Positions 1,836 to 53,876 are shown, counted from the stretch's first letter. The stretch: DNA of 64,000 nt from Chloroflexota bacterium (GCA_964291655.2 OZ219802.1:1504001-1568000); one strand, 5' to 3'. Made by a program: numbers and translations. The notes: generated by a model from the sequence alone, not told the origin.

Positions 1836-2123
1836 TGTACAGACCGGGGACATAGGTAACAGTTGTTCGGGGACATGGGTTACACATTTTACTGATTGAC
1901 ACCTACGAGAGCATTGGGTTGGTCCGGGTTTGATAAGAGACTGGCGACACAGTGCACTCACTTTCAGCCTGTCAGCTTGTGCCAGAGAAACAAACTGTGT
2001 GCATAAGGATATTGAGCGGATCTAACTTTCAAGGCAAGGACATCGCATACTACGAAAATCCCCTCGTTCTATGGTGTAACCTATGTGCCCGAACATGTGT
2101 AACCCATGTACCCGGTCTATACA
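1836..2123 (+). mobile_element. 288-bp non-autonomous MITE, copy 1 (subtype A), IS481-like TGT...ACA ends
   Basis: TGTACAGACCGGGGACAT...ATGTACCCGGTCTATACA. Each end has two repeated CGGG-ACATRGGTWACA sites. 5-bp TSD CTCCC within a CCCTCTCCC/GGGAGAGGG hairpin. Confidence 0.93.
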
Positions 2124-2421
2124 CTCCCCAGGGAGAGGGGGTCATTGTCGCCCGCCTATCTTAGTAATGTATCGCACTGGAAGTCTGCGCGTGGCCCGAA
2201 CCAAGGTGGAGAGGGAGTCTCTCTTGCCCGCCAATCTTGCTCAAGCATCAGTCTGATGGTCCGCACATGCCCTAAACCAAGGTATGGGGGTCTCCAGGCG
2301 GGGATATAACCGTTTGCTCGATTCTCTCTTGAACGCTTCAAACGCCTGCCTAAACGCCTAGGGTCACCGTTTCGCCGGCTGAGCTTGTGGATGTGCTTAG
2401 AAACGATCCCGATTCTGTCGG

Positions 2422-3399
2422 CTACTCTTCCGGTACTACTGTAACAGGCAATCCAGTCTCGATAGATTGCCGCGCCGCCGTGATCAGGCGCATTGCCTCC
2501 ACGCCGTCCTCGCCGGTGACGATTGGCACTGTCTTGCCCGCCACACAGTCGAGAAAGTGGCTAATTTCCATATAATAGCGGTCGAGTCCGCCGACGTCCG
2601 TCTCCACCCGCTCGGTAACGTGATCCAGGCTAAAGCGGCTCCGTCCGGATTGAATGTCGATAACGATAGCGCCGCGTTCGCCGTAAATCTCAATGCACTT
2701 TTCCGAATGGGGCGACGACCAGCTTCCCTCCATGGCGCCGACCACGCCGTCCACACTCTCCGCCATGAAGACAACGGTATCGGTGCCGGCTATGTCTTGA
2801 GCGAGGGTCGCGCCCTTGGCGTAGATGTTCTTTAGCTCTCCAATTAGGTGGCGGAAGAGGTCGACGTAGTGAGGGCCGGACTCCCACAGGATGCCGCCGC
2901 CCCGCGCGGGATCTCCCAACCAGGTGCCGGCCATGAGCTCCACGCCCGCAAACCGGAGGCGGAAATGGTGCAGGGGGCCCAGCTTACCGGCATCGATCCA
3001 TGCTTTGGCTTTGGCGATGGGGGTATAGAAGCGGTTGCAGAATGCGGTCAGTAGATGGACGTTAGCGCGCCGGGCGGCAGCAACCATGGCCTGCCCCTCG
3101 GCCACGCTCATGGCCAGCGGCTTTTCACAGAGCACGTGCAGACCCCGCGCAACCGCCTGTTCGGTAATCTTGCGGTGGGAGGTCGGCGGCGTGCAAATGC
3201 TGACGGCATGCAGTTCTTCACTACGCAGCATGTCCGCGTAGTCGGTGTAGGCTTTTGCGCCGTACTCCTGCGCACGCGCCTCCGCGACGGCCAGAATAGG
3301 ATCGGCCACGGCCACAATCTGCGCCCGACCACTCTTGGCATAGCTGCACAAATGAGAATGGGAAATAGCGCCGCAGCCAATGACGCCCACACGGATCAT
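2422..3399 (-). CDS. Gfo/Idh/MocA family oxidoreductase
   Basis: MIRVGVIGCGAIS Rossmann motif, CEKP motif, GGG..ESGPHYVD. Start set at the ATG at 3399. Confidence 0.9.
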   Translation of the reverse strand: MIRVGVIGCGAISHSHLCSYAKSGRAQIVAVADPILAVAEARAQEYGAKAYTDYADMLRSEELHAVSICTPPTSHRKITEQAVARGLHVLCEKPLAMSVAEGQAMVAAARRANVHLLTAFCNRFYTPIAKAKAWIDAGKLGPLHHFRLRFAGVELMAGTWLGDPARGGGILWESGPHYVDLFRHLIGELKNIYAKGATLAQDIAGTDTVVFMAESVDGVVGAMEGSWSSPHSEKCIEIYGERGAIVIDIQSGRSRFSLDHVTERVETDVGGLDRYYMEISHFLDCVAGKTVPIVTGEDGVEAMRLITAARQSIETGLPVTVVPEE

Positions 3400-3487
3400 G
3401 GAAGAGCCTTTCTCTGTCGAATTGCCACTCCTCAGGCCATGCAAACCGGAAATGCAAGGAGCCCCTCACCCCAGCCCTCTCCCCCAG

Positions 3488-4039
3488 GAGACCTCTGCGC
3501 AACTCTAGCGGTAGCGAAATAGTTCCCTCTCCCTCGACGGGAGAGGGCTAGAGCCTGCCCCGTACTCGATACGTGTATAGACCGGGGACATGGGTAACAG
3601 TTGTTCGGGCTCATAGGTAACACCATAGAACGAGGGGGTTTTCGTAGTATGCGATGTCCTTGCCTTGAAAGTTAGATCCACTCAATATCCTTATGCACAC
3701 TGTTTGTTTCTCTGGCACAAGCTGACAGGCGGAAAGTGAGTGCACTGTGTCGCCAGTCTCTTATCAAACCCGGACCAACCCAATGCTCTCGTAGGTGTCA
3801 ATCAGTAAAATGTGTTACCCATGTCCCCGAACAACTGTTACCTATGTCCCCGGTCTGTACAATACGGGGGTGAGGGTGAATCTCCGAATTCTCTCCATAG
3901 CATACAGATATTTGCTCGGCTACATCTTGACACTGCACCAGCGCAAGGGGCCACCGCAACATAAAGATCCCCTCACCCCGACCCTCTCCCCGAGGAGAGG
4001 GAGGTTTGCTCGCCGACAGGTAAGTTACGCAAAGGTCTC
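3488..4039. mobile_element. GAGACC...GGTCTC-ended non-autonomous element (~259 bp without the insert), carrying two BoxC-like hairpins; hosts MITE copy 2
   Basis: TIRs GAGACCTCTGCGCAAC / GTTACGCAAAGGTCTC. CCCAG duplicated on both sides. Sits in the loop of a CCCTCTCCC-GGGAGAGGG hairpin. Confidence 0.8.
3574..3861 (-). mobile_element. 288-bp MITE, copy 2 (subtype B)
   Basis: TGTATAGACC...GGTCTGTACA. TSD ATACG inside the small hairpin CCCCGTACTCGATACGGGG. Confidence 0.93.
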
Positions 4040-4170
4040 CCCAGGGAGAGGGAGTCACTTTGCGCTTGCGGGTCGTTCGTACGCCAATCCCGCCGGTCGT
4101 ATGACTATGCCTCTGTTGAGCGATTCGCCGGGCTTCCGACCCCGGCAGAAGAAGATGCATGCCGTTTCGT

Positions 4171-5008: not shown

Positions 5009-5244
5009 CCGCAAGACTCATTCTGCCTAGGAGACCATCGCACAGCCCAATTCTACAGGCGGCAAGACTCCCTCTCCCCTTGAAGACCCTACACGCCCAC
5101 ACCTAGCAGACCAAAAGACTCCCTCTCACCAGAAAGCCCCTGTGCACCCCTGCCCTGCAGGCCGCAAGACCCCCTCTCCCTGGGGAGAGAAAGCCCATGT
5201 GCACCCCTGCCCTGCAAGCCGCAAGACCCCCTCTCCCTGGGGAG
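5009..5244. repeat. Degenerating tandem array of ~51-57-bp units (GCAAGACYCCCTCTCCC...)
   Basis: Core recurs near 5011, 5062, 5114, 5164 and 5221. The two rightmost units are nearly identical. Confidence 0.7.
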
Positions 5245-5532
5245 TGTATAGACCGGGTACATGGGTTACACATGTTCGGGCACATAGGTTACACCATAGA
5301 ACGAGGGGATTTTCGTAGTATGCGATGTCCTTGCCTTGAAAGTTAGATCCGCTCAATATCCTTATGCACACAGTTTGTTTCTCTGGCACAAGCTGACAGG
5401 CTGAAAGTGAGTGCACTGTGTCGCCAGTCTCTTATCAAACCCGGACCAACCCAATGCTCTCGTAGGTGTCAATCAGTAAAATGTGTAACCCATGTCCCCG
5501 AACAACTGTTACCTATGTCCCCGGTCTGTACA
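5245..5532 (-). mobile_element. 288-bp MITE, copy 3 (subtype A)
   Basis: Reverse complement of copy 1. TSD GGGAG in a BoxC-like hairpin. Confidence 0.93.
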
Positions 5533-5943
5533 GGGAGAGGGCCGGGGTGAGGGGAATCTTCACCGTTACCGCCTATTGCCGCACGCTCGTCAGGACCGAA
5601 AATACATCCTTGGGACCAAGCCGTCTCATCCGCAGTCCCAAATCATCCAGCCTCCACTTAATCGCCGCGCTCCGCGCGGTTGCACAGCAACGACACAACT
5701 GTCCGCTCACGGCGGCTGTAACGTAACGACCTCAATGGGTCAAGCGGTCTCGATTCAGCAACTCCACGCCTCCGCCTCTCCGCATGGTAAAGGATGCGCC
5801 GCACTCAGGGCAACGGGAACATGACACTGGTTTAGTGCTATGCTAGAATCGTGGTTCGGGTGAAGAAGATGACACGTCCTTTGACGAATGGATATGTAAG
5901 TTTCTTTGTGTACGTAGCTCGTGGCAAGAAGGAGTTGCTCTTG

Positions 5944-6462
5944 ATGCGGTGGGGTTTGCGCGTTCCCTTGGCGCTCGTCGCGCTTGTGCTTTCGTTGATA
6001 CTTATCAGCGCTTGTGGTGGCGAAGAGAAAGCAGCCTGGAGTTGGGATGAAGACCCAACGCCCGAGACAGTCGCCTCCACAGATTCCTCTACCACCAAGA
6101 AAGATGATGCATGCGAACCGATGCCGGATTGCATCGAGGTTACCGTGGACCTTAGTAAGGGCAGGGCCGAGGACGGGATGGAGCTATTCGAGACAAAGGG
6201 ATGCGTCGCCTGTCATCAGGTTGAAGAAGGCGGCCCCGGTGGCACAATTGGCCCCTTACTTGCCGGTATTGGCGATCCCGCGGCGCGCCCGCAACTGGCG
6301 GCGGGTGATGAAGGTGCGGCAGGCATTCCCAACACTCCTGAGAATATCTGGCGCTGGGTGCAGTTCCCGCAAAAGATCAAGCCGGGAACGGAAATGGCGC
6401 CGCAACCCCTTGATGAGCAAGAGGCCGCTGACCTGGTAGCGTATCTGCAGACGCTGAAGTAG
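5944..6462 (+). CDS. Monoheme c-type cytochrome lipoprotein
   Basis: Signal peptide with lipobox LISAC, CVACH heme motif, distal KPGTEM Met ligand. Confidence 0.88.
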   Translation: MRWGLRVPLALVALVLSLILISACGGEEKAAWSWDEDPTPETVASTDSSTTKKDDACEPMPDCIEVTVDLSKGRAEDGMELFETKGCVACHQVEEGGPGGTIGPLLAGIGDPAARPQLAAGDEGAAGIPNTPENIWRWVQFPQKIKPGTEMAPQPLDEQEAADLVAYLQTLK

Positions 6463-6524
6463 TGCGTCCGGCGAACCGCAATTGGCCGCAGAGTTCGTGC
6501 GGCTCTTTCAGGGACCCGTAGTCG

Positions 6525-6983
6525 ATGCGCAGGCTTGTCCAAATCGCCGCAGGCCTATCTCTCGTCACTCTGTGGCTTGCTGCACTAACCGGCTGTCTTC
6601 CTTGGGATTCTCAGGAGCAGTCGACTGCTCAACCCATCGCGAATGGTGGTTCCCGCGCTTCCGCCAACCCGCTGTCAACCGTTCCGCCGGGAATTCTCGA
6701 CAATGGCAGCGCGACACAGGGCCAAGCGCTCTTCGCAAGCAAGGGGTGTACTGCTTGCCACCAGATCGGCGGTGAAGGCGGCAGCGCCGGTCCCGCCTTG
6801 GACGGCATCGGCGACCGGACGAAGCGGCCAACGCTGGCAGGCAACCTTGCAAACACGGCGGAAAACTTGTGGCTCTGGATCACGGATCCGCGATCGATCA
6901 AGCGTGATACCCTCATGGCGTCGCAGCCGCTCACTCCCCAAGAAGCCGTCGACCTCGTAGCATACCTGGAGACTCTGAAATAG
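6525..6983 (+). CDS. Monoheme c-type cytochrome lipoprotein (paralog of the upstream gene)
   Basis: Lipobox LTGC and CTACH. C-terminus DLVAYLETLK matches DLVAYLQTLK of the neighbour. Confidence 0.88.
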   Translation: MRRLVQIAAGLSLVTLWLAALTGCLPWDSQEQSTAQPIANGGSRASANPLSTVPPGILDNGSATQGQALFASKGCTACHQIGGEGGSAGPALDGIGDRTKRPTLAGNLANTAENLWLWITDPRSIKRDTLMASQPLTPQEAVDLVAYLETLK

Positions 6984-7053
6984 GTGACTGTGCAGGCGGG
7001 AGGACTCCCTCTACCTGGGAAGAGAACAGGCGAATGATCCCACTCTCCCTGGG

Positions 7054-7800
7054 GAGACTTTTGCATAACCCTTGCTGGGGCGAGAAAGTCCCCTCTCCCG
7101 GTGGAGACCTTTGCATAACCCCACTTTCAAGCAGGGGCACTCCCTCTCCTGGGGGAGAGGGTCTTTTTGCTACGATGGCCCTTTACGCTGGGCAGTGTCA
7201 AGACGTATCAGGGCAGATTTGGTGTGCATATGGAGAGATTTCACGAGATTCACCCTCACCCTAACCCTCTCCCATCTGTACAGACCGGGGACATAGGTAA
7301 CAGTTGTTCGGGGACATGGGTTACACATTTTACTGATTGACACCTACGAGAGCATTGGGTTGGTCCGGGTTTGATAAGAGACTGGCGACACAGTGCACTC
7401 ACTTTCAGCCTGTCAGCTTGTGCCAGAGAAACAAACTGTGTGCATAAGGATATTGAGCGGATCTAACTTTCAAGGCAAGGACATCGCATACTACGAAAAT
7501 CCCCTCGTTCTATGGTGTAACCTATGTGCCCGAACATGTGTAACCCATGTACCCGGTCTATACAGGGGAGAGGGCCGGGGTGAGGGGGTCCTTATGCTAC
7601 GATGGCCCTTTACGCTGGGCAGTGTCAAGACGTATCAGGGCAGATTTGGTGTGCATATGGAGAGATTTCAGGAGATTCACCCTCACCCTAGCCCTCTCCC
7701 GTCGAGGGAGAGGGGACATCCGCGCTGTGGCGAGGGTTATGCAAAGGTCTCCGCCGGGAGAGGGGACTTTCCCGCCCCGCGTGGGTGATGCAACAGTCTA
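7054..7800. mobile_element. Nested GAGAC-ended elements (outer 7054-7800, inner 7104-7751) with a duplicated internal spacer; hosts MITE copy 4
   Basis: Left TIRs GAGACTTTTGCATAAC (7054) and GAGACCTTTGCATAAC (7104). Right TIRs GTTATGCAAAGGTCTC (7751) and degenerate GTGATGCAACAGTCTA (7800). Confidence 0.7.
7277..7564 (+). mobile_element. 288-bp MITE, copy 4 (subtype A), no matching TSD
   Basis: Same sequence as copy 1. Flanks CCATC and GGGGA do not match. Confidence 0.92.
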
Positions 7801-7859
7801 CCCAGGGAGAGGGTTGGGGTGAGGGTGAAGCATCAGAATAAGGTCAAATTGAAAGCGTA

Positions 7860-8510
7860 CTAGCCCTTCTGGCTGGTTCCCCGCAGCACCCAACCCAGCA
7901 CTGCCACCACCACAACTAAGAGCACCGCAAAGCCCAACCACGCCGGAATAAATTCCTGTAAAGGACTTTCAGCGGACGTGGTTGCATCGGCCCCGGCAGC
8001 CGTTGAACGTGTCCGCTCAATCCGGAAACCGGACTGTCGATAGGGCTCGCTGGTACCCGCGGCAGGCACTTGGCCCTCACCCAGCGCGTCAATGTCCGAC
8101 TGCGCGAGCGACAAGCGGCGCGTGCGGCTGCAAGGGACTGCGGTCTCGCCGTCGTAGGAGTAGACCAGCCACTCCTGTCCCACGTAGAACTCCACCCCGC
8201 AACTGCCGCTCCACCATGCCGTTTCGATGAACATGGTGGCATAGGCCTGGCCTTTCCAGACGGCGTACACTTCGAACTCCACCAAGACGTACCCGCTGAG
8301 CAGCGCCGGTTCGCGCAGCGTGCCGTCGCCCCCGCTGACGTGCACAACCTTCCCCGAGAACACTTTTGCGCTCTGCGCCAACGCCTCGGTGGGAGAGGGC
8401 GTTTCCCCGCACGAGCACGCATCTACGTCACCTACGAACAAGAGAAAGCAAAATCCGGCAAAGAATATTGCTGAGGAAAATCGCAAGGCTTGAACGGTCG
8501 TCATCATCAC
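7860..8510 (-). CDS. Secreted, C-terminally membrane-anchored TIMP/NTR-like domain protein
   Basis: Signal peptide followed by A-CSC, VFSGKVV, FEVYAVWKG, SCGVEF..GQEWLVY and CSRT; C-terminal TM helix. Confidence 0.72.
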   Translation of the reverse strand: MMMTTVQALRFSSAIFFAGFCFLLFVGDVDACSCGETPSPTEALAQSAKVFSGKVVHVSGGDGTLREPALLSGYVLVEFEVYAVWKGQAYATMFIETAWWSGSCGVEFYVGQEWLVYSYDGETAVPCSRTRRLSLAQSDIDALGEGQVPAAGTSEPYRQSGFRIERTRSTAAGADATTSAESPLQEFIPAWLGFAVLLVVVVAVLGWVLRGTSQKG

Positions 8511-8809
8511 TTAATTATGTCTCATTCGTATGAAGCAATAACACTTGCCAACTCCCTGACTACTCCGTTGCAACGCAAGTACAAGTAGACGCACTAGGTG
8601 GGTTTCTCACTTAGCTGGTGGTCTAGTTACTCATCGTTGTATTTTTTTGTTTGCAACCTGATCCTGCGGAGTCCTGCAGATGCGAACTCTTAACCTACAA
8701 ACTCGAGGGTCGGCACAAGTTGACATACCGGTTGCGAACACTACCCGCACCTAATACATTGGATGGTGCGCGCAATTCGACTGGCAACAACAAGGCAAGG
8801 GAGCACAAG

Positions 8810-10657
8810 ATGGATTATATGGGCTACGGTATCGAAAATGAATTCCTCCAAGGGGTGCTAGGTGGATCAGCGGAGGGGAATACACAACTTCCCGACTTTC
8901 AGCGAGGTTGGGTGTGGGACGACGAACACGTGCGGAGCCTCCTCTCAAGCATCACTCTAGGATATCCGATCGGTGCAGTCATGATGCTTGAGGTCGGGGG
9001 CGATAGTGTTCGCTTCAAGCAACGCCCGCTTGAGGGTGCACCTGAGCCGAAGCAGGAAGCCGAGCGGTTAATCCTTGACGGACAGCAGCGGATAACGTCG
9101 CTATTCCAGTCCCTCCGCCCTGACCAACCAGTTCGCACCCGCGACCAGCGCGGACGGCAAATCGACCGCTGGTACTACATCAAAATGGAACTGGCTCTGG
9201 ACCCAAGTTCCGATCGTGAGGACGCGGTGGTCTCGCTGCCAGCAGACCGGCAGATCAAACGTTTCGGGCGCGATGTCATAGAGGACTACTCGACTCCCAA
9301 TCTAGAGTATAAGGCAATGCTCTTTCCGCTGTCCCAGGCATTCGATTCGAGCGACTGGCGTGTGGGCTTCGAAAAGTACTGGGACTACAACAGAGAGAAG
9401 ATCAAACTGTGGAACGAATTTGAAAAGAAGATCGTCAAGCGCATTCAGCAGTACCAAGTGCCGGTAATTGAGCTTGGAAAGGACACTCCGAAAGAGGCTG
9501 TGTGCCAAGTCTTTGAGAAGGTGAACACAGGGGGCGTGACACTTACTGTTTTCGAGCTGCTTACCGCAACTTTTGCAGCTGACGACTTCCAATTGCGACC
9601 AGACTGGGAGGTACGGGAGCGTACGATACACTCCCAGTCGGTACTCACTGGCGTGTCCAATACGGACTTCCTTCAGGCTGTAGCGTTGCTCGCAACCCTT
9701 GAGCGGCGGCAGGTTGCCATGCGTGATGGCACGGACGCGGACCGTGCGCCGGGAGTAGGGTGTAAGCGCGCGGACATGTTGCGGCTGAGTCTCGAAGAGT
9801 ATCAGAGGTGGGCGGATCCACTGATGAGGGGCTTCGAGAGGGTGGCGCGATTTCTTCACGCGCAACGCCTTTTCGACGCCAAGTTCCTGCCCTACGGTAG
9901 CCAATTGATTCCGTTGGCCGCAATCCTCACAGAACTTGACAGCGATTGGGAGCCGCACCCTGCGAGGGAGAAGCTCGCGCGCTGGTACTGGTGCGGCGTC
10001 CTAGGAGAATTGTACGGTGGATCAGTCGAGACTCGATTTGCCCTCGACCTTCCGGAGGTTGTGAATTGGATTCGGGACAACGGGCCAGAGCCGAGGACGA
10101 TCTATGACGCTGAGTTCGCCCCGGCCCGACTGCTTACACTGCGCACCCGGAATAGCGCAGCATATAAGGGCGTGTACGCACTGCTGCTGCGCGAAGGTGC
10201 ATGCGACTGGATCACAGGAGAGGAATCGTCGATACAGTCCTACTTCGACGAGAGAATCGACATCCACCACATCTTCCCCCAAAAATGGTGCCGCGAGCAG
10301 GGGATAGAGGCAGCGCGCTGTGACTCGATTATCAACAAGACGCCACTCACGGCACGGACGAACCGTAGCATTGGCGGCCAAGCGCCCGGCGCATACCTGA
10401 ATCGCATCATGTCGGATGGCGTTTCGCGAGACGCGCTGAACATCTACCTCGACTCGCATCTCATCGACCCCGAGCACCTATGGCTTTCCGATTTTAGTCA
10501 ACTCTTTCGCGCAAGGGAATCGGCTCTTCTCAATGCAATCAGGAAGGCGATGGGGAAGCCCATCGCGTCCAGGACGGTAGATGAGCCCGACGACACGCCG
10601 GTCGATTACGAACTTGTGCAGGAAGATAGTTTGGAGTTGGAGGGCGTGCCTGGTTGA
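8810..10657 (+). CDS. GmrSD-like (DUF262 plus C-terminal HNH/DUF1524-like) putative modification-dependent restriction protein
   Basis: LPDFQRGWVW, LDGQQR, FEKVNTGG, DIHHIFP...NKTPL...N. Start at ATG 8810 after AAGGGAG. Confidence 0.85.
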   Translation: MDYMGYGIENEFLQGVLGGSAEGNTQLPDFQRGWVWDDEHVRSLLSSITLGYPIGAVMMLEVGGDSVRFKQRPLEGAPEPKQEAERLILDGQQRITSLFQSLRPDQPVRTRDQRGRQIDRWYYIKMELALDPSSDREDAVVSLPADRQIKRFGRDVIEDYSTPNLEYKAMLFPLSQAFDSSDWRVGFEKYWDYNREKIKLWNEFEKKIVKRIQQYQVPVIELGKDTPKEAVCQVFEKVNTGGVTLTVFELLTATFAADDFQLRPDWEVRERTIHSQSVLTGVSNTDFLQAVALLATLERRQVAMRDGTDADRAPGVGCKRADMLRLSLEEYQRWADPLMRGFERVARFLHAQRLFDAKFLPYGSQLIPLAAILTELDSDWEPHPAREKLARWYWCGVLGELYGGSVETRFALDLPEVVNWIRDNGPEPRTIYDAEFAPARLLTLRTRNSAAYKGVYALLLREGACDWITGEESSIQSYFDERIDIHHIFPQKWCREQGIEAARCDSIINKTPLTARTNRSIGGQAPGAYLNRIMSDGVSRDALNIYLDSHLIDPEHLWLSDFSQLFRARESALLNAIRKAMGKPIASRTVDEPDDTPVDYELVQEDSLELEGVPG

Positions 10658-10819
10658 CTGTTTGCCTTGGTCGTGATTTGTTCCTGAGGGGTAGCGATTC
10701 GCAACTGTTTTTTTGTTTAGCCATTTGCGTGGTCTGTTGTGAGGTCTGTGAAAGAACGGTTCCATCCGTAACATTCAAAGGCCAACCGGCGTCACGAAAG
10801 GGGTAATTTCGGTGCGGAG

Positions 10820-11000
10820 TCTCTGCTCCCGGAAGCGATTGGCAAGCGGGCGCCGCGGCCTCTTCTTGGCAGACGGTGAATACCGTTGGCCCGCTGCCGG
10901 AGACCTGGGCGTGTTGAGCGCTGGCTTGCATCAAGTCGTTTTTGTGCCACTGTGATCTACGGCCGCAGGCATGTCGCTGCTGTCACTGCTAGTCCTGCCA
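10820..11000 (-). pseudogene. Decayed duplicate of the ispE 3' region
   Basis: Encodes MQASAQHAQVSGSGPTVFTVCQE, versus MQAGAERAHVSGSGPTVFAVCED in the intact ispE. An in-frame stop lies upstream and the frame is disrupted. Confidence 0.75.
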
Positions 11001-11021
11001 GTAATCGGCGGCCGCTGTCGA

Positions 11022-12629
11022 TCACAACTTTATTGGGGTATTGGTGCCTGTTAATTGGCAGGGCGAGCCCGCACTTGGCCAATTTCCTTTGACGAAGTCG
11101 GCAGCCCGCTCTGCCATTGCAATCACCGTGTGGTTGAGGTTGGCCCGCACGGTATCGGGCATGATTGACGCGTCGCAGATGCGGAGGCCCACGACGCCGT
11201 GCACCCTGCCGTATTGGTCCGTCACGGCCAGTGGATCGGTGGCGGGCCCCATTTTGCAGGTGCTTGAGACGTGATGGGCCGTGACCACCTCGCGTTTCAT
11301 CCATGAATCCAGGGCAGCGTCATCGTCAAGGACATTGTCCGCGGGCGCGACCCGTTCAGCGACCATGTCTGCGAAGGCTGCATGTTGGAACAACCCGGCG
11401 CAGGTCCGGATGCTCTCGCGCAGCCGCGAGCGGTCGAACGGATCGTCCAGCAGGTTGAAGTCGAGGTACGGCTGCTGCCGCGGGTCATCGGATTGGAGGC
11501 GGAGTTCGCCCTGGCTCAGGGCCAAATAGAGGCACTGGCTCACGCCGATGCCTATCGGAATCAGATGGTCCGCGCCCCGCATGGGCCGTTCCGCCGCATA
11601 GTTGCCCATGTAGATCACCAGGTCATTCTTGAATGGCGAACCGGTGGCCGTATAGCGCAGCGTGACCATGCCCGTCGCCACCTGAGAGGTGAACAGGCGA
11701 AATCCTGCTCGCGTGCGCCAGGCCATGGGCACGTCCGGGTGGTCGCGAAGATTGCGGCCGACGCCTGGGAGGTCGTGCACAACGGGTATGCCAAACTGCC
11801 GCGACTGCGCCGCCGGTCCGATTCCCGATAGCGCCAGGATGTGGGGCGAGCCGATCGCCCCGGCGCAGAGGACGATCTCGTCGCCATAGACGTCAAACGT
11901 TTCATTCCCGCTGATAGCGCGCACGCCTACTGCGCGGTTGTCCTGAAAGATGATGCGGTGGACGAGGCAGCGGGGTCGAATAGTCAGCTCCGGACGGGCG
12001 CGGGCAGGATTGAGGTAGGCGAAGGCCGTGCTCACACGCGTGCGGCCCGCAATGTTGAACGCCAGCGGTCCTACGCCTGTGGCATGGGGCAAATTGTGGT
12101 CGGGACAGTCGGGAATTCCGGCGTCACGGCAGGCCTCATAGAACGCGTGCTGTTGGGGTCCCCATACGCCGGGCTGAAACCGGTGGCAGTACATGGGACC
12201 GTCCGCGCCGTGAAGCTCGCTTTGAAAGTCCGCGTCCGCTTCCAGTTTCTTTAGATAGGGTAAGACTTTCGCGTACTCCCACTCCGGATTGCCCCACGAC
12301 GCCCACCGCTCGAAGTCTTCCGGCATTGCCCGCAAGAACTGCGCGTCGTTGACAGCGCTGGAACCGCCGGTGACCTTGCCGCGCGGTATATCAATCTCGG
12401 CTTCATCCGTCGCCCGGGCGCGAAACTTCCATATGTGTTCGGTCTCCCAGAGGCTTGTGTCAACGCCGTAGACGTACTCTAGCGGGTGCGGCAACCGCGC
12501 CTCCGAGGGAAAGTCCGCCCCGGCCTCGAGCAGCAGCACCGAGCGGTGGGGGTCTTCGGTCAGGCGGGCCGCCAAGACCGCGCCAGCCGAACCCGCGCCA
12601 ACGATAATGTGATCGTATCTCTTGCTCAT
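11022..12629 (-). CDS. GMC family oxidoreductase (choline dehydrogenase/MftG-like)
   Basis: IIVGAGSAG, RGKVTGGSSAVN, GAIGSP.IL.LSGIG, HHVSSTCKMG and DASIMP. Confidence 0.92.
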   Translation of the reverse strand: MSKRYDHIIVGAGSAGAVLAARLTEDPHRSVLLLEAGADFPSEARLPHPLEYVYGVDTSLWETEHIWKFRARATDEAEIDIPRGKVTGGSSAVNDAQFLRAMPEDFERWASWGNPEWEYAKVLPYLKKLEADADFQSELHGADGPMYCHRFQPGVWGPQQHAFYEACRDAGIPDCPDHNLPHATGVGPLAFNIAGRTRVSTAFAYLNPARARPELTIRPRCLVHRIIFQDNRAVGVRAISGNETFDVYGDEIVLCAGAIGSPHILALSGIGPAAQSRQFGIPVVHDLPGVGRNLRDHPDVPMAWRTRAGFRLFTSQVATGMVTLRYTATGSPFKNDLVIYMGNYAAERPMRGADHLIPIGIGVSQCLYLALSQGELRLQSDDPRQQPYLDFNLLDDPFDRSRLRESIRTCAGLFQHAAFADMVAERVAPADNVLDDDAALDSWMKREVVTAHHVSSTCKMGPATDPLAVTDQYGRVHGVVGLRICDASIMPDTVRANLNHTVIAMAERAADFVKGNWPSAGSPCQLTGTNTPIKL

Positions 12630-12927
12630 GCTATTCAGTCGGTCGTGCGCGCGCGTTTCCGTGCGGCCGGCTTGCCTTCCCGCGCGGTGTAGATCTCTTC
12701 CACCGCATTGGAGGGCCGATATGCAAAGAATCCTTTGTGTAATGTTAGCGGTTCCGTGAGAGTTTCTTCTCCCTTGACAGAGTCCCTTGCGTAACTCTAG
12801 CGGAAGCGAGTATGTTCCCTCTCCCGCGATGGAGACCTCTGAATTGCTCCGTCATACCGGCGAAAACTGGAATCCAGAAGTCTGAGGGTAGCTTGCGATT
12901 ACTAGCTATGGAGCCAAAGTGTACTCC

Positions 12928-14700
12928 TCACCACTTGGACATCCTCATGAAGGGGATAGGGTTTTGCAAGGGTCTCCGCGACGGGAGAGGGTTAGAGCCT
13001 GCCCGTAGGTGATATGGGGTGAGGGTGAATCTCCTGAAGTCTCTCCATATGCACACCGACACTGCCCTAATACGTCTTGACACTGCCCAGCGTATAGTGC
13101 CATTGTAGCAAGTAGACCCCCTCACCCCAACCCTCTCCCCCAGAGGCTGTCTCAATATTTTGGTGCGGGGCACGGTGAATGGGGTGAGAAGGACAGACAG
13201 ATGGCGGGTGGTATGAACAAGACGGTGCCAGTGAGAGACTCGTCCCCGGGGCGACGCTGGACTACACCCAGACCGCCACAGGGCGTGGAGGCTCTTGAGA
13301 TTGAACGCGGTGGCCAGCAGGTGCCATTCGGACGTCACGTGGCTGCGGCCTCTGAGCAGGAAGCGCCTGGCACTGTGCCACTCCTTGAGCAGGCCAAAGA
13401 CCGGCTCGACGATGGTACTCCGGCGGCGGTACACCTGCTTGGCAGGCGCGGTGGCCATCAACTGCCTGTGCCGTTGCAGTATTGGCTCGTAGGCGCTGAT
13501 CTTTATGGAGCGGCCCCTCTGGGAGGAGGTGCAGACGCCGAAGGCCGGACAGGTTCTGCAGTCCCGGCCGTTGGCTTGGTACCGCTTGACCCGGTAGCCG
13601 TTGCTGTGGGTCAAGCGGTGCGTGTAGGTGAGCACCTTTTGCTGGGGACACAGGTAGGTGTCGGTCTCTGGACGGTAGGTGAAGTGGTCTTTATGGTAGG
13701 GGTTGCGGCGTCTGCGCTCGTGGGTCGTGGGCATCAATACCGTGTGGCCGCCGGCGTGGCACGTGGCGAGGTTGGCCCCCGAATGGTAGCCGGCGTCCGC
13801 AACGGTCACCACGTCCCGCGCGGCGTCGATGTTCTCCTGCGCCGCCTCGATCAGCGGCGCCAGGTGGGGATGGTCGTCGGCACTGGCGCTCACGTCCACG
13901 GCTGTGATCAACCTCCCCCCTGCGCCCTCGTCCGGGGACGCAAGAGGGGAGACCAGCGCCTGGGCGTTGTAGCCGGTGATGAAGCCACCCATGCCAGTCT
14001 TGAGCAGGGCCGCGTCCGCATCAGTCAGGTTCGTGTAGCGCGGCCCGTCCTCAGCCGCGACGCGGGCGAGCGCGTCGTCCACCCGCCGCCGCAGGGCCTG
14101 GGCATCGGCAAGTTCCTGCGGCAAAGTCGCTGGCGGCGCGTCGCCCCCCGTGGCGTTCTGCGCCTCCAGGTCCGCGATCGCTTGCTCGGTGCGGGACAAC
14201 AGCCGCTGCAGCCCCTGCGCGTCGTGGGTATGCCGCGTCCCGGCGTTGGCCGCGATCCTGGTGCCGTCCACCGCCTGGATTGCCAACTCCACCAGGCCGG
14301 CTCGCACCGCCGTGCGCACCGTGCGCTTGAGCAGCGTCCGCATCCGGTCGCGGTGCGCCTTGTAGAAGCGCCACAGCGTGTTGTGGTCCGGCTGCTGCAT
14401 CCCCACCAGCCACAGGTACGGTACCTGATCCCGGCAGGCTGCCTCCAGCTTGCGGCTCGAGCGCACGCCGGTCATGAAGCCGTAGACCCATACGCCCAGC
14501 AGCGCGCGCGGATGGTAGGCCCCGGCGCCACGCGGATCGCCTTGCAGGTCAATCTCCATCGCCTCCCAGGCCGCAGCATCGAGGCTGTCCACGAACGCTG
14601 CCGCAAACCTGACAGGATGGTCGTCCGGGATCAGTTCGTCCAGCGTCGGCGGCAACAGCCAGGCCTGTTCACGACTAAACGGTCTCAACGGCATCGTCAC
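12928..14700 (-). CDS. IS1182-family DDE transposase (reads through the IS end)
   Basis: LLPPTLDELIPDDHPVR, YHPRALL, SSRKLE, PDHNTLWRF, VDGTRI.ANA, GYNAQ, ADAGY and RR..IVEPVFG. Confidence 0.92.
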   Translation of the reverse strand: MTMPLRPFSREQAWLLPPTLDELIPDDHPVRFAAAFVDSLDAAAWEAMEIDLQGDPRGAGAYHPRALLGVWVYGFMTGVRSSRKLEAACRDQVPYLWLVGMQQPDHNTLWRFYKAHRDRMRTLLKRTVRTAVRAGLVELAIQAVDGTRIAANAGTRHTHDAQGLQRLLSRTEQAIADLEAQNATGGDAPPATLPQELADAQALRRRVDDALARVAAEDGPRYTNLTDADAALLKTGMGGFITGYNAQALVSPLASPDEGAGGRLITAVDVSASADDHPHLAPLIEAAQENIDAARDVVTVADAGYHSGANLATCHAGGHTVLMPTTHERRRRNPYHKDHFTYRPETDTYLCPQQKVLTYTHRLTHSNGYRVKRYQANGRDCRTCPAFGVCTSSQRGRSIKISAYEPILQRHRQLMATAPAKQVYRRRSTIVEPVFGLLKEWHSARRFLLRGRSHVTSEWHLLATAFNLKSLHALWRSGCSPASPRGRVSHWHRLVHTTRHLSVLLTPFTVPRTKILRQPLGERVGVRGSTCYNGTIRWAVSRRIRAVSVCIWRDFRRFTLTPYHLRAGSNPLPSRRPLQNPIPFMRMSKW

Positions 14701-14786
14701 TACCTCTCTACAAACTATCCCACCACCTCACCTTGCTTCTCTTCACACCAGTATATATCCAGTAGATCTATTTTTGAGACACCCTC
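13143..14786 (-). mobile_element. IS1182-family insertion sequence
   Basis: TIRs GAGGCTGTCTCAA / TTGAGACACCCTC. Inserted in the loop of CCCTCTCCC...GGGAGAGGG; flanks CCCA/CCCG (imperfect TSD). Confidence 0.85.
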
Positions 14787-14839
14787 CCCGGGAGAGGGAG
14801 TGCCCCTGCTTGAAAGCGGTATGCAATGGTCTCCATCGG

Positions 14840-15052
14840 CAAGGGCTCCCAAACCATGAACGACATCGTCCAGCGCCCCGTACGGTGGTCCGCTCGCGCA
14901 GGCCTAGTCGGTAAGCCGGCGGCATGGTGGCCGTCGAACCTCACCGACCTGGCCGCCAGCCTATTGAGAGCGGGTGTGCGAATTGCAGGACTGTCGTAGG
15001 ATCGTGGGTGGTCCCTGCGGAAGCTGTCTGCAACCACACAGATGACATTCAA
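14840..15052 (-). pseudogene. Truncated N-terminal fragment of a sulfatase
   Basis: NVICVVADSFRRDH...RTPALNRLA...PTRPARADHRTGR is the sulfatase N-terminus with a degenerate xxPxR motif. It stops at the repeat cluster. Confidence 0.7.
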
Positions 15053-15135
15053 ATTGACTGCTCCCTGATGCTCCCGACAAATGTACCATAGGCCGCGAGG
15101 AGCAGGCAGAGTCTGTGCGCCGTTGGCTCCTAGCC

Positions 15136-16029
15136 TTACATGCCGGCGTGGCCCCAGGTCCTCCCGGACTGAACAATGCGGACGAGCTCGGCGGCGTACC
15201 CCTGCATTCGGATGCGGTTGGCAAGCGCGAGTGCGGCGTGCCTGTCTTCGCACACGGCAAAGACCGTAGGGCCGCTGCCGGAGACGTGAGCACGCTCGGC
15301 GCCGGCTTGCATCAGGGCAATCTGCGCTGCTGCAATTTCCGGCGCCAGGTCGCGAGCGGAGCGGGCTAAGCCGTTGTGCCAGCGAATCTGTGGTGAGAGC
15401 GTGCCGAGCCGGGCGGCGGCAACGGCGTCTGCGGTGGCGACGCCTGAGGTGTAGTCCGACGGGGTTACGGAGCCATAGACCTCCGCTGTGCTAAGCGTGG
15501 TTGGCAGCAGCACGAGCACCACCCAGTGCGGTGGCAGTGGCGGCAGTGGCGTGATGCGTTCACCGCGACCGGTGGCAAGCGCCGTGCCGCCTGTGAGAAA
15601 GAACGGCACGTCCGATCCCAATCCGGCAGCCAGTGCCTGCATCTCCGTTAGGGGTAGTTGAAGATTCCACAGCCGGTTGAGGGCAATGATAGCTCCCGCC
15701 GCATCGCTGCTGCCGCCGCCCAGGCCGGCCGCGACCGGTATGCGTTTCTCCAGACTGAGCGCGGCGCCCGCCCGCACGGAGAATTCTGTCTGTAGCCGCC
15801 GCGCGGCGCGATACATGAGATTATCCGGCTTTGCCAGCACGGGGTCTGAACATGTGAAGGATAGTTCGTCTGCCGCCGCGACCTCCAGCCGGTCGGCCAG
15901 CCCGACGGTCTGCATCACCGAGCGAACCTCATGGAAGCCGTCGGCGCGTTTCCCCAATATCTCCAGGGTCAGATTGATCTTGGCGTAGCAATTAACAACC
16001 ACGGTGATCCCGATCTCTCGTGCAGGCAC
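15136..16029 (-). CDS. ispE: 4-(cytidine 5'-diphospho)-2-C-methyl-D-erythritol kinase
   Basis: AKINLTLEILGKRADGFHE, KRIPVAAGLGGGSSDAA, LGSDVPFF and VSGSGPTVF. Confidence 0.95.
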   Translation of the reverse strand: MPAREIGITVVVNCYAKINLTLEILGKRADGFHEVRSVMQTVGLADRLEVAAADELSFTCSDPVLAKPDNLMYRAARRLQTEFSVRAGAALSLEKRIPVAAGLGGGSSDAAGAIIALNRLWNLQLPLTEMQALAAGLGSDVPFFLTGGTALATGRGERITPLPPLPPHWVVLVLLPTTLSTAEVYGSVTPSDYTSGVATADAVAAARLGTLSPQIRWHNGLARSARDLAPEIAAAQIALMQAGAERAHVSGSGPTVFAVCEDRHAALALANRIRMQGYAAELVRIVQSGRTWGHAGM

Positions 16030-16199: not shown

Positions 16200-16601
16200 G
16201 AGACCTTTGCGCAACCCCCGCCGGATGCGCAAGAACCACTCCCTCTCCCTGGGGAGTGTATAGACCGGGTACATGGGTTACACATGTTCGGGCACATAGG
16301 TTACACCATAGAACGAGGGGATTTTCGTAGTATGCGATGTCCTTGCCTTGAAAGTTAGATCCGCTCAATATCCTTATGCACACAGTTTGTTTCTCTGGCA
16401 CAAGCTGACAGGCTGAAAGTGAGTGCACTGTGTCGCCAGTCTCTTATCAAACCCGGACCAACCCAATGCTCTCGTAGGTGTCAATCAGTAAAATGTGTAA
16501 CCCATGTCCCCGAACAACTGTTACCTATGTCCCCGGTCTGTACACTCCCCAAGGAGAGGGGGCAGTTCTTGCGCCACCGGCCGGGGTTACGCAAGGGTCT
16601 C
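16200..16601. mobile_element. Short palindromic GAGACC...GGTCTC element hosting MITE copy 5
   Basis: GAGACCTTTGCGCAACCCC / GGGGTTACGCAAGGGTCTC with an extended imperfect inverted repeat. Confidence 0.7.
16257..16544 (-). mobile_element. 288-bp MITE, copy 5 (subtype A), flanks inverted rather than direct
   Basis: Same sequence as copy 3. Flanks are GGGAG and CTCCC. Confidence 0.92.
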
Positions 16602-26828: not shown

Positions 26829-27056
26829 GAGGCCTTTGGCTAACGCCGTCATTCAGGCGAAAAGTCCGCCCCGTACGTGAAACAGGGGTGAAGGCGAATC
26901 CCCTAAAACCTGTATATAGCGCACCGATTATTGCGCTGCTACATCGTGAAGCTGCACATTGCAAGGGGCAATTGTAGCCATAGGAGCCCTAACCCCGACC
27001 CTCTCCCCCAGGAGAGGGAGGTTTTGTCGCCTGCTGTTGGGTTACGCAAGGGTCTC
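26829..27056. mobile_element. Diverged GAGACC-family element
   Basis: Right end GGAGAGGGAGGTTTTGTCGCC...GTTACGCAAGGGTCTC resembles 3990-4039. The left end GAGGCCTTTGGCTAAC is degenerate. Confidence 0.55.
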
Positions 27057-50527: not shown

Positions 50528-50557
50528 CCGACTTGTCGGCCGCGCCCGGCGGGAGCG

Positions 50558-51253: not shown

Positions 51254-51432
51254 AGGTTAATTTCTCCTTGGCGTGAAGACCGTCGGTGCAAGAGACCTCT
51301 CCGGCTTTGGTCGCCGTGCAGCGCTTGGCATCGTAGCGCAAGCGGTACGACTATGGCTATAGACGCTATGGCTACAGCCGCAGATTAAGGGGTCAGGTAT
51401 ACCTCACTCTGTCATAGTAACGAAATAACAGT

Positions 51433-51830
51433 CCCCACCGTCACTCCAATCCCACTGTCATCGCGATCCCACCGTCTCTTCGATCCCACCTTCTTTTCGA
51501 GCCTACTGTCATTTCGAGCCTACTGTCATTTCGAGCGCAGCGAGAAATCTAGGGTTCTCAACCCACTATCACGCGGCTCAGTCAACCAATATTCTAGACT
51601 CCTCACTCCGTTCGGAGTGACAAGCTCAGGGGTGCCACAAGCCCCACCGTCACTCCAATCCCTCTGTCATCGCAATCCCACCGTCTTTTCGATCCCACCG
51701 TCATATCGAGCCTACTGTCATTTCCAGCCTACTGTCATTTCGAGCGCAGCGAGAAATCTAGGGTTCTCAACCCACTAACTTGCTGCTCAGTTAACCAATA
51801 TTCTAGACTCCTCACTCCGTTCGGAGTGAC
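51433..51830. repeat. Direct duplication (period 209 bp) of six 17-mers plus a GTCATTTCGAGCGCAGCGAGAAATCT/AGACTCCTCACTCCGTTCGGAGTGAC REP-like pair
   Basis: Units start at 51433 and 51642. 17-mers occupy 51434-51535. Confidence 0.9.
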
Positions 51831-51960
51831 AGACCTAGGGGTTCTCACTAACGACAGACCTGATTCGTTGCTCCGGTTGACTATGCACCTTGATATGCGC
51901 CGCACCATGCTTAGGCGTCGGTCTCGCGTTACCCGACACTATAGAATTGCCGCACGTGAC

Positions 51961-53259
51961 CTAGGCAGACGCGGCCGCGGTCTGCTGCTCACGTTCCCAG
52001 GCGCGGAGTTCGTCCTGATGGTCTGCTAGCTTGTGCAGGACGTCGAGGAGGCGGTCCATGTCGCTTTGGGGTCCCAGGAACGTCGCATGTGGGAGGCAGA
52101 GCGCTTCTTCCGCGTAGATGCGTTCCGTTTCCGGCAGGTAGACCTTACGATAATCGATCTCCTTGCCGTAGAACGAACACGTAAAGGGATGCCCGGTGCG
52201 GCCGAAGTTCATCTCCTGGAAGATCGGGTTGCGGTAGACCGGTTGGGTGTGGCCCGTGTGCACGCGCAGTCCTTCGGCATTCAGGGCTTTCATGACCGTG
52301 TCGCGTGCGATGCCGCCGAACTGCGCGCCGTGGTACTTGAAGTGCCAGAAGTAGAAACCCCAGCGGGTCACGCGGGGATCGCGGTAGAGCGGCGAGAAAC
52401 CGTCAATCTGCGCAAGCTGCTCCGACAGGTATGTAACATTGCGCTCGCGGGTGGCAGTCTGCGCTGGCAGGCGGGCGAGTTGTGCGTTGCCGATGGCGCC
52501 CTGCCACTCGGTCATGCGCAGGTTCGTGGACGGGATGTGATGTTCGAAGAAGGGGCGGCCCGGATAACGTCCGATGTTGTGGAAGGAGGATGCATGTTGC
52601 GCCACCTCCTCCTCATTCGTTAATACCATACCGCCTTCGCCGGTGGTGAGGGTCTTGCCCATCTGAAAGCTGAAACCCCCGCAATCGCCAATGGCGCCGG
52701 TACCGACGCCCTTCCACTGCGAGCCATGGGAGTGCGCGCAGTCAGAGACGATGGCGATATTGTATTTGGCCCCGATGGCTTGCAGCGCGTCCATGTCGCA
52801 GGGCAAGCCGCCGTAGTCTACGGGCATCACCGCCCTGGTCTTTGGCGTAATGGCAGCCTCCACAGCCTTGGGGTCGATAGTGTAGTTGCGCGGGTCGCAG
52901 TCTACAAAGATGGGAATGGCATTGGCCTGCAGCACAGCGGAAGCACTCGCCACAAAGGTAGCAGCGGGGACAATGACCTCGTCTCCCGCTTCCACACCCA
53001 CTGCCCGCAGCGCGGCCTCCAACGCCACGGTGCCGTTCGCCACCGCGATGCCGTATGTGGCGTCCTGGAAGGCGGCAAAGTCGCGCTCGAACCTTCCCAC
53101 TTGGGAATCGTCTTGGTCTGCGTGCCCGCCCCGCCACCAGATGCCGCTCTCCAACACGCCTTCCAACAGCACGTGTTCTTCCTCACCACAGACCGGCCAG
53201 GACTTGCCGAGCGGTTCAGCGATTGCAGGCGAGCCGCCGGTAAGCGCAAGTTTTCCCAT
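51961..53259 (-). CDS. DegT/DnrJ/EryC1/StrS aminotransferase (AHBA synthase-like)
   Basis: NGTVAL, DCAHSHG, FSFQMGKTLTTGEGG and NLRMTEWQ. Confidence 0.92.
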   Translation of the reverse strand: MGKLALTGGSPAIAEPLGKSWPVCGEEEHVLLEGVLESGIWWRGGHADQDDSQVGRFERDFAAFQDATYGIAVANGTVALEAALRAVGVEAGDEVIVPAATFVASASAVLQANAIPIFVDCDPRNYTIDPKAVEAAITPKTRAVMPVDYGGLPCDMDALQAIGAKYNIAIVSDCAHSHGSQWKGVGTGAIGDCGGFSFQMGKTLTTGEGGMVLTNEEEVAQHASSFHNIGRYPGRPFFEHHIPSTNLRMTEWQGAIGNAQLARLPAQTATRERNVTYLSEQLAQIDGFSPLYRDPRVTRWGFYFWHFKYHGAQFGGIARDTVMKALNAEGLRVHTGHTQPVYRNPIFQEMNFGRTGHPFTCSFYGKEIDYRKVYLPETERIYAEEALCLPHATFLGPQSDMDRLLDVLHKLADHQDELRAWEREQQTAAASA

Positions 53260-53312
53260 GCAGTCATGCTCCTTGATTTCGTTATTGCTGTGGGAGCGGC
53301 ATGCTGCCCTCC

Positions 53313-53336
53313 GTCATTCCCGCTTGCGCGGGAATG
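53313..53336. repeat. ATTCCC-N8-GGGAAT palindrome (dRS3-like pattern)
   Basis: GTCATTCCCGCTTGCGCGGGAATG; a related copy lies at 56960-56982. Confidence 0.7.
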
Positions 53337-53588
53337 CACCTTCTCCGCCCCCGCCTTGGAGTCCCGCTCCGGAATCGGATCACGGAAAACACTTCGCAGG
53401 AATCACCATAGCCTCTACAGATTACACAGAGGCAGTGGCGGCGATTGGCTTCTCTTCCGCACCGGTAGTCTGCGCCGCGCGGTGAGGTGATCGTCAACAT
53501 TCATGGTGATGAAGGACTGCTGTGATCCTTGCTTCCTCCCACGAGCGCCGCGACGCTCAGATTCGCCCTCACCCCGGCCCTCTCCCTC

Positions 53589-53876
53589 TGTATAGACCGG
53601 GGACATGGGTAACAGTTGTTCGGGCTCATAGGTAACACCATAGAACGAGGGGGTTTTCGTAGTATGCGATGTCCTTGCCTTGAAAGTTAGATCCACTCAA
53701 TATCCTTATGCACACTGTTTGTTTCTCTGGCACAAGCTGACAGGCGGAAAGTGAGTGCACTGTGTCGCCAGTCTCTTATCAAACCCGGACCAACCCAATG
53801 CTCTCGTAGGTGTCAATCAGTAAAATGTGTAACCCATGTCCCCGAACAACTGTTACCTATGTCCCCGGTCTGTACA
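53589..53876 (-). mobile_element. 288-bp MITE, copy 6 (subtype B)
   Basis: Shares the diagnostic variants of copy 2. TSD CCCTC in a BoxC-like hairpin. Confidence 0.93.

Follow-up and report, generated by a model that had tools for sequence, protein, structure and literature searches.

Why do all six copies of a short mobile element in one stretch of bacterial chromosome lie inside DNA palindromes? The question is raised by 64,000 nt of a Chloroflexota bacterium (GCA_964291655.2 OZ219802.1:1504001-1568000, or G000:C2:1504001-1568000 in our numbering; hereafter the window), whose host assembly consists of two contigs, 3.47 Mb in all, with 59% G+C. [quoted passage not shown] Our analysis makes it very probable that the MITEs are mobilized in trans by a transposase of the IS481 family of insertion sequences (ISs), and that integration is directed to a three-block motif, the BoxC/PIT/TM_ECO repeat also known from Escherichia coli. 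In this genome, BoxC/TM motifs receive nearly all insertions of an active IS481 lineage and of the MITEs that go with it.

MITEs and full-length elements

Repeat finding and a six-way alignment located six copies of exactly 288 bp, starting at 1836, 3574, 5245, 7277, 16257 and 53589, with those at 1836 and 7277 in opposite orientation to the other four. Copies 1836, 5245, 7277 and 16257 share 100% identity, and copies 3574 and 53589 are ~96% identical to these by blastn. The MITE tips read TGTATAGACC at one end and, as reverse complement, TGTACAGACC at the other, within a terminal inverted repeat that matches at 42/50 positions, and each end contains two direct 17-nt subterminal repeats (nt 10-27 and 33-50, 15/17 identical) that are presumed to be transposase-binding sites. 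All six copies are located between long open reading frames (ORFs), 'intergenic' for these copies meaning outside long ORFs by ORF lists. Five interrupt CCCTCTCC(C)/GGAGAGGG palindromes, while the sixth (3574) interrupts a CCCCGTA/TACGGGG palindrome abutting a GTGAGGG block. Uninterrupted, the main target spans ~33 bp in the order pyrimidine arm CCCTCTCC, loop of 3-5 nt, purine arm GGAGAGGG, 2-3 nt, purine third block GGGGTGAGGG. The earlier description was accurate on each of these points: the TGTAYAGA...TCTRTACA ends, the two ~17-bp sites per end, the four exact 5-bp duplications (CTCCC, ATACG, GGGAG and CCCTC), the five-to-one division between palindrome types and the arm/loop position within intergenic palindromes were all recovered. 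The copies and their interrupted targets are as follows.

1836..2123, minus strand: MITE copy 1, 288 bp, 100% class; duplication CTCCC at 1831-1835 and 2124-2128
1814..2141, plus strand: split target of copy 1, with third block and pyrimidine arm at 1814-1835, loop and purine arm at 2124-2141
3574..3861, plus strand: MITE copy 2, 288 bp, ~96% class; duplication ATACG at 3569-3573 and 3862-3866
3557-3573 and 3862-3878: halves of the copy 2 target, a CCCCGTA-ctcga-TACGGGG hairpin directly abutting the GTGAGGG block
5245..5532, plus strand: MITE copy 3, the reference copy, 100% class; duplication GGGAG at 5240-5244 and 5533-5537
5227-5244 and 5533-5554: halves of the copy 3 target
7277..7564, minus strand: MITE copy 4, 100% class; no duplication
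7252-7276 and 7565-7588: flanks of copy 4, which derive from two different target units
16257..16544, plus strand: MITE copy 5, 100% class; no duplication
53589..53876, plus strand: MITE copy 6, ~96.5% class; duplication CCCTC at 53584-53588 and 53877-53881
53565-53588 and 53877-53891: halves of the copy 6 target

A blastn search of the genome with the 288-mer identified 69 elements with these ends, comprising 45 MITEs and 24 full-length ISs of 1265 bp. The MITE-sized elements (287-289 bp) fall into 33 copies of 288-289 bp that are at least 96% alike, 11 copies of 287 bp that are 74-76% alike and one degenerate copy. Because 16 of the 33 are identical to one another, the MITEs must have spread recently, in keeping with the active spread suggested before (16/45 of all MITEs), and the IS481 lineage is active. 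No pair among the 69 elements shares both flanks over at least 150 nt; segmental duplication as the source of the copies was thus ruled out, and the 69 insertions therefore represent independent loci.

A single, intact 377-aa ORF is present in 24/24 full-length copies, of which 17 belong to type A1, five to type A2 (DNA 87% alike) and two are A2/A1 chimeras. A tblastn search of the window for relatives of this transposase found none, so that the transposase is indeed absent from the window, as had been noted, but not from the genome. The A1 protein belongs to the IS481 family (NF033577, 290.4 bits against a cut-off of 224), while its score with the IS3 model lies below the cut-off (116 against 160). 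Pfam matches are rve, rve_3, HTH_32 and LZ_Tnp_IS481, and the DDE residues can be read by eye in WQMD, LMDNG and GKLE. TGT...ACA inverted repeats and short direct target duplications are traits of the IS481 family, and the elements here have the ends TGTATAGACC...GGTCTGTACA and short duplications. Of the two affiliations proposed previously, IS481 thus holds (NF033577, 290 bits), whereas a Tn7/Mu-like element, for which a module of several genes (TnsABC or MuAB) and long ends with multiple sites would be expected, does not fit 1265 bp with one ORF. The IS family is present in 15/16 other genomes of the genus.

The ends of the 288-bp MITEs are 98% and 93% identical to the A1 ends and those of the 287-bp MITEs 96% and 100% identical to the A2 ends. 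Moreover, in an alignment with the IS of a sister genome, MITE nt 1-179 correspond to IS nt 1-179, and MITE nt 225-288 to IS nt 1202-1265. Because both ends and interior align with the IS, the MITEs are internal-deletion derivatives: they are short, non-coding and multicopy, are flanked by duplications and have termini in common with an autonomous element. This agrees with their proposed non-autonomous nature, and the full-length element with the same ends that had been sought is found 24 times. The 377-aa DDE transposase encoded by the ISs elsewhere in the genome would move the MITEs in trans.

Target motif and insertion position

To define the target, an empty genome was built in which each element and one copy of its duplication were removed before searching. 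Here, 63/69 insertion points fall in CCTCTC-N3-14-GAGAGG hairpins, which together span ~7.0 kb, or 0.20% of the genome; the enrichment at palindromes anticipated from the window is therefore genome-wide. These hairpins make up ~1.2% of crude intergenic space, and even against that denominator the binomial probability of 63/69 is ~1e-113. The crude ORF-based gene calls place just 35/69 insertions outside ORFs, as they over-call genes in repeat-rich spacers, and crude intergenic space was therefore used only as a conservative denominator.

Hairpin structure as such does not account for target choice, contrary to what the earlier note had suggested. Perfect hairpins with a stem of at least 7 and a loop of 3-9 number 2,761 in the empty genome, and the 235 with a CCTCTC-type arm hold 63/64 of the hairpin insertions (binomial p 2e-66). 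The remaining 2,526 hold a single insertion, which rules out generic hairpin targeting, and other repeated hairpin families (148, 84, 75, 54 and 46 copies) hold zero.

Critically, the third block next to the hairpin (GGGTGAGGG) is required for targeting. Under a looser pattern that returned 265 hairpins, 194 show a CCCTCACCC/GGGTGAGGG block at a distance of 2-3 nt from an arm; 61/194 hairpins with the block are occupied compared with 2/71 without it (Fisher p 8e-8). Within one flanking-repeat family the corresponding figures are 17/31 and 0/5. About 30 of the hairpins that lack the block represent a composite variant: a second hairpin (CCCCGTA) separates the first one from the block, and here the first hairpin is never occupied. 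The block-adjacent CCCCGTA hairpin is occupied once in this genome (window 3574), and a full-length IS in another genome (L023) occupies the same position of the same hairpin type with the same ATACG duplication, independently of window 3574. The CCCCGTA-ctcga-TACGGGG hairpin of the composite variant has 42 perfect copies genome-wide (e.g. window 3524-3573).

Overall, an element is present in ~30% of motif copies. Occupancy is higher for units with an 18-19-nt hairpin (53/148) than for those of the 21-nt GTCGA-loop variant (8/45; p = 0.03). The window itself retains unoccupied sites, so the notion that every third-block motif in it is occupied proved wrong, with three unoccupied matches present:

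7680..7714, minus strand: unoccupied three-block motif of the GTCGA-loop variant, which this IS lineage seldom uses
3970..4005, minus strand: unoccupied three-block motif
26987..27018, minus strand: unoccupied three-block motif with a degenerate third block
7144..7161, strand not assigned: unoccupied hairpin of the same sequence, without third block

Insertion is confined to one junction within ~2 bp. Of the 69 elements, 43 have a 5-bp, 15 a 6-bp and one a 3-bp duplication. The other 10 show no exact one; six of these have a 5-bp duplication with one mismatch and three have unrelated flanks. The duplication lies at the block-proximal arm/loop junction in 52/57 scorable copies and at the mirror position in five. 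With the block oriented upstream, it comprises the last 3-4 nt of the block-proximal arm and 1-2 nt of the loop. The transposase would accordingly be expected to make staggered cuts 5 bp (43 cases) or 6 bp (15 cases) apart at the junction of the loop and the block-adjoining arm. Element orientation relative to the motif is random (MITEs 21:20, ISs 11:11). Remnants of element tips (13 nt and ~40 nt) occur inside motifs at G000:C2:1710217 and C2:1397818 and are possible scars of deletion or excision.

The repeat that is hit had been called REP; its palindromic, intergenic character stands, and the label gives way to that of the BoxC/PIT/TM_ECO intrastrand triplex motif, whose pattern it follows. 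To our knowledge, no function has been assigned to these motifs since they became known in the 1990s. The published consensus is CCCTCNCCC-N3-6-GGGNGAGGG-N3-GGGNGAGGG (Holder et al. 2015, PMC4666352, as given in the accessible part of that paper). The empty genome contains 62 strict matches and 209 relaxed ones (at most 2 substitutions, loops of 2-6 and 2-4 nt), with 63/69 insertions in the relaxed set and 13/69 in the strict set. By eye, third block and purine arm are mirror images, the arrangement needed for a purine-motif triplex, and this mirror relation is kept in four diverged motif variants (L029, L049-L056, L084 and this genome). Watson-Crick folding of the empty site gave two competing hairpins (z-scores -2.9 and -1.5), a result that is uninformative on triplexes, and no Rfam family reached its gathering threshold in window 5100-7900. 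Thirty doublets of oppositely oriented motifs 113-121 nt apart were also observed (window example 7565-7714); they form a ~160-nt repeat ending in motifs that looks like a REPIN or a MITE.

In the portions of PMC4666352 available, the motif is reported to number 23 copies in Escherichia coli MG1655 and 3,610 in 262 proteobacterial genomes, to form a stable triplex in vitro and to occupy loci that are more variable between strains by a mechanism that was not identified. The same portions report no transposase or integrase remnants near motifs and discuss cyanobacteria as well, with 0 occurrences of 'Chloroflex'.

Among named elements, ISEc19 (E. coli yagA) and ISRm20 come closest, the transposase of each showing ~50% identity across its full length. 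Where the yagA/ISEc19 remnant of E. coli ends on the left, it abuts CCCCTCTCCCCTTTGGGG, which is the same loop/purine-arm position (L104 340-412), and a complete three-block unit lies 35 nt beyond this half motif, upstream; the remnant's right end lacks terminal repeat and tip. The remnant adjoins one of the MG1655 motifs that PMC4666352, in its accessible part, itself lists. Among 5,426 complete E. coli genomes the three-block unit occurs in 4,940, at a median of 13 places, and ISEc19 matches occur in 353, at a median of one place per genome. The K-12-lineage ISEc19 rows inspected were 100% identical, and ISEc19 in E. coli yielded no independent insertions to score.

Sites without the element provide a view of the target before insertion. 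The sister genome G008, 95-97% identical in the flanks of the window copies, is uninterrupted at the sites of copies 1836, 5245 and 53589, each with a single copy of the duplicated bases, and G003 is likewise uninterrupted at 53589. The G008 ortholog of the copy 6 site carries a single CCCTC in an intact three-block motif. Parts of the window are also contained in sequencing runs labelled sponge metagenome, for which bridging and junction contigs alone were counted as evidence, uncovered parts and high MITE depth being set aside. Runs X1 and X2 each contain one 2,684-nt contig in which 5187 is joined to 5557 with no MITE in between, and in X14 and X16 there are contigs that leave the unique left flank and enter the MITE for 10-14 nt. 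The window copies are thus not assembly artefacts, a concern that the earlier note had itself raised.

Two further differences were seen at these sites. The G008 ortholog of the copy 1 site (L102) has the hairpin without the 13-nt third block found at window 1814-1835, and the block there resembles the adjacent arm and loop, as if copied in tandem and since diverged. A 55-bp tandem duplication that includes a half-motif (5134-5244), directly upstream of copy 5245, is present neither in the G008 ortholog nor in the contigs of X1 and X2.

Recognition of the motif

A search for the common tip TGTATAGACC identified a second lineage in the same genome, IS-C, with an element of 1287 bp in four copies:

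G000:C2:1707063-1708349: IS-C copy
G000:C2:1755174-1756460: IS-C copy
G000:C2:1906013-1907299: IS-C copy
G000:C2:2408023-2409309: IS-C copy

The IS-C transposase is 55% identical to A1 and scores 293.3 bits with NF033577. All four copies (4/4) are inserted in the same three-block motif as the A-type elements, with a duplication (CCCTC, GAGGG or AGAGGG) that corresponds to the last 5-6 bp of the arm at its block-proximal end, ~4 bp from the A-type insertion point. As one host and one motif are thus used at two fixed offsets, the element's own protein probably sets the site. We therefore infer that specificity resides in the transposase itself, since two lineages in one cell use different fixed offsets of one motif and diverged lineages elsewhere use diverged motif variants.

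Those diverged lineages were examined at related loci from other genomes; of 567 such loci the best 80 (57-85% identical) were taken, and 74 of these were usable. Insertion in a perfect hairpin (stem of at least 7) was found at 34/74, compared with 408/14,195 (2.9%) for random positions of the same loci. The records of close relatives are metagenome-assembled genomes (MAGs) of uncultured Chloroflexota or Dehalococcoidia, and related elements occur in several phyla. In one lineage the motif variant has a TTGAC loop and the duplication ACGGG, and another variant, with 15-bp stems, is hit in the centre of the loop (L049-L056). Motif variants are also used in one Desulfobaccales MAG and one Thiotrichales MAG. 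A transposase tree, for which 81 rows were reduced to 46 by dropping L013, L019, L044, L058, L063, L072, L087 and identical sequences, contains a Chloroflexota clade of 27 rows (support 100/99), and 23/27 of these rows have a three-block or partial three-block target. Deep nodes of the tree are unresolved, and therefore no single origin of motif targeting is claimed.

More distant relatives, ~50% identical, include elements inserted exactly in the 5-nt loops of unrelated hairpins: L113 and L103 (Sinorhizobium; L103 by eye) and L109 (an E. coli plasmid). Hairpins hit by ISRm20-like and other relatives at this distance are CCCTGTG/CACAGGG and CCCCTTG/CAAGGGG, and L106, a proteobacterial relative at 47-52% identity, lies beside a hairpin. 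Given these relatives in loops of unrelated hairpins, loop insertion may be older than motif specificity.

How, then, would the transposase recognize its site? We lean, if only slightly, towards the view that it reads a composite of sequence and palindrome geometry. Geometry is favoured by the CCCCGTA cases and by the shift to the loop centre in long-stem variants, and sequence by the neglect of 2,526 other hairpins and by the lineage-specific offsets.

Several observations weigh against motif-directed integration as set out here. Six of the 69 insertions are outside the simple hairpin pattern, five in degenerate or recombinant versions and one (window 3574) in the unrelated CCCCGTA/TACGGGG hairpin beside the third block, which a strictly sequence-defined site does not predict. 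The strict published pattern contains 13/69 insertions, as most targets have 8-nt arms and a 2-nt second loop and need up to 2 substitutions. In a seven-row Dehalococcoidia clade, all that is seen is a C-rich motif upstream of where the element is inserted, and the proteobacterial relatives L105, L107, L110 and L112 (47-52% identical) show no such target and no hairpin. In addition, selection against insertions elsewhere must contribute, inseparable from targeting by sequence analysis alone, and transposition itself is deduced from the sequences.

A different possibility, which we consider unlikely, is that the transposase or a target-capture complex reads a non-B structure, namely an intrastrand triplex, an H-DNA-like fold or an extruded hairpin stabilized by the block. 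The dependence on the third block is consistent with this idea (occupancy 61/194 against 2/71), as the block turns a hairpin into a triplex motif and, by eye, remains a mirror of the purine arm in all four diverged variants. In the same direction, 15-bp stems receive their insertions at the loop centre (L049-L056), so that insertion tracks the hairpin and keeps no fixed distance from CCCTCTCCC, and two independent insertions lie at the same loop/arm position of the unrelated CCCCGTA hairpin. However, the CCCCGTA hairpin is unable to form a purine-motif triplex with the block, two lineages in one cell cut the same motif at different offsets, and 2,526 other perfect hairpins received one insertion. 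Nor was a replication-strand bias of occupancy detected (11/30 against 11/37, p = 0.61), in what is a weak test since the GC skew of the assembly is flat over half of contig C2. From the literature, the motif's stable triplex in vitro (PMC4666352) and a preference of Tn7 for triplex-forming repeats (PMC2886061) are in favour, as far as the accessible parts of both papers go. It is correspondingly doubtful that the IS481 subgroup including ISEc19 constitutes a natural transposon lineage homing to triplex DNA; if it did, this would supply the missing mechanism for instability around these motifs in bacteria of several phyla.

Still less probable is a host protein that binds the motif and tethers or activates the transposase, with specificity residing in the host and not in the element. 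Conservation of the motif across phyla, from E. coli to Chloroflexota, suggests some conserved ligand, and we know of no host protein that binds the BoxC/TM motif. The different fixed offsets of two IS lineages within one host argue against such a tether, as do the tracking of diverged motif variants by diverged lineages and the presence of the elements in several phyla. The parts of PMC4666352 at hand name no motif-binding protein.

Finally, random insertion followed by survival only in harmless repeats is highly improbable: every copy is located between long ORFs, and genic insertions are certainly selected against, but ~1.2% of crude intergenic space holds 63/69 insertions at one junction within ~2 bp, 16 MITE copies are identical and hence recent, 371 solitary CCCTCTCC words outside hairpins have 0/69 insertions, and ~815 other hairpins outside ORFs (crude calls) hold at most one. 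The suggestion that MITEs gain a safe harbour by inserting in these repeats is plausible.

Rearrangement, known systems and neighbouring features

With a transposase that reads the motif as the preferred explanation of how the copies arrived, the MITEs may later produce rearrangements through homologous recombination. The segment from copy 7277 to copy 16257 (7277-16544) is inverted relative to G008:C70, and G008 has no MITE at either inversion junction. The two bounding copies are identical, lie in opposite orientation and are without duplications. Joining the right flank of copy 5 to the left flank of copy 4 (element orientation) yields a perfect 6-bp CTCCCC duplication, whereas the other cross-pairing yields none. 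These unequal pairings rule out one reciprocal exchange between two normal insertions, and more than one event or a third partner is therefore needed. Recombination between MITE copies is the likely cause of the inversion, judging from the arrangement of these flanks. Capture of motifs by ISs and MITEs, followed by recombination between copies, would offer a testable mechanism for motif-linked genome instability, and because it gives a concrete, testable cause for the instability of triplex motifs we regard the finding as of fairly high interest.

What appears to be new here is motif-specific insertion for IS481; repeat-specific insertion is already known in other IS families, which IS481 now joins. 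The closest parallels are IS1397, ISKpn1 and ISPsy8 of the IS3 family, which share a DDE (rve) transposase, insertion inside intergenic palindromic repeats (REP units) and short duplications. In contrast to these, the element here belongs to IS481 and has a single ORF rather than a frameshifted orfAB; its target is the BoxC/TM three-block motif and not the enterobacterial REP or bacterial interspersed mosaic element, and its MITEs are abundant. The accessible text of PMC1525189 attributes the specificity of IS1397, ISKpn1 and ISPsy8 to the transposase, and surveys REP-targeting members of the IS3, IS110, IS4, IS256 and IS5 families with 0 occurrences of IS481. In its Table 2, the IS110-family elements IS621, ISPpu9, ISPpu10 and ISPa11 show 100% REP association at a fixed position; unlike the present elements, which have inverted repeats, duplications and a DDE enzyme, these use an unrelated recombinase and generally lack inverted repeats.

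Within their own family, the elements resemble IS481, ISEc19 and ISRm20 in the transposase model match and the TGT...ACA ends, and differ in having ~50-bp ends with two subterminal repeats each and motif-specific insertion. IS481 itself prefers a short NCTAGN site. The likeness to the motif described in PMC4666352 (so far as its accessible part allows comparison) extends to pattern, location between long ORFs, occurrence in both orientations and rearranged loci between close relatives, the difference being that in this genome an IS family inserts into the motif. In Tn7, too, target choice is attracted by triplex-forming DNA, but through heteromeric machinery with TnsC, of which no homologous counterpart was seen here, and on artificial or repeat-expansion triplexes rather than a natural dispersed motif (PMC2886061, available part). 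In the literature searched, without most subscription journals, no link was found between IS481 and REP, nor between BoxC or intrastrand triplexes and a transposase target.

The REP/RAYT and REPIN systems likewise involve short, abundant intergenic palindromes, and 30 inverted doublets are present here. The genome's single gene for a REP-associated tyrosine transposase (RAYT) is, however, flanked by GCGGGCG..CGCCCGC hairpins, another repeat family:

G000:C2 ~2,523,380-2,524,060 (L089:1399-2079), minus strand: RAYT gene, 82 bits against a cut-off of 80

As its hairpins are of the GCGGGCG type, a link between RAYT and the motif was ruled out.

The system is compact, with a 377-aa enzyme, a 288-bp substrate and a ~33-bp target already present in E. 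coli K-12, and would help to find out if non-B DNA can be read by a DDE transposase. Integration restricted to such sites may be of interest to tool developers as well.

Other features of the window include a transposase ORF of the IS1182 family at 12928-14700 (minus strand; 364 bits against a cut-off of 270). The corresponding element has repeats at ~12976-13283 and 14582-14835, many contig ends of G008 match its end regions, and motif-like fragments occur in its flanks. Two tandem repeats lie further downstream, one at 51428-51842 (~206-209 bp, 2 copies, 91% alike) and one at 63647-63940 (147 bp, 2 copies, 93% alike).

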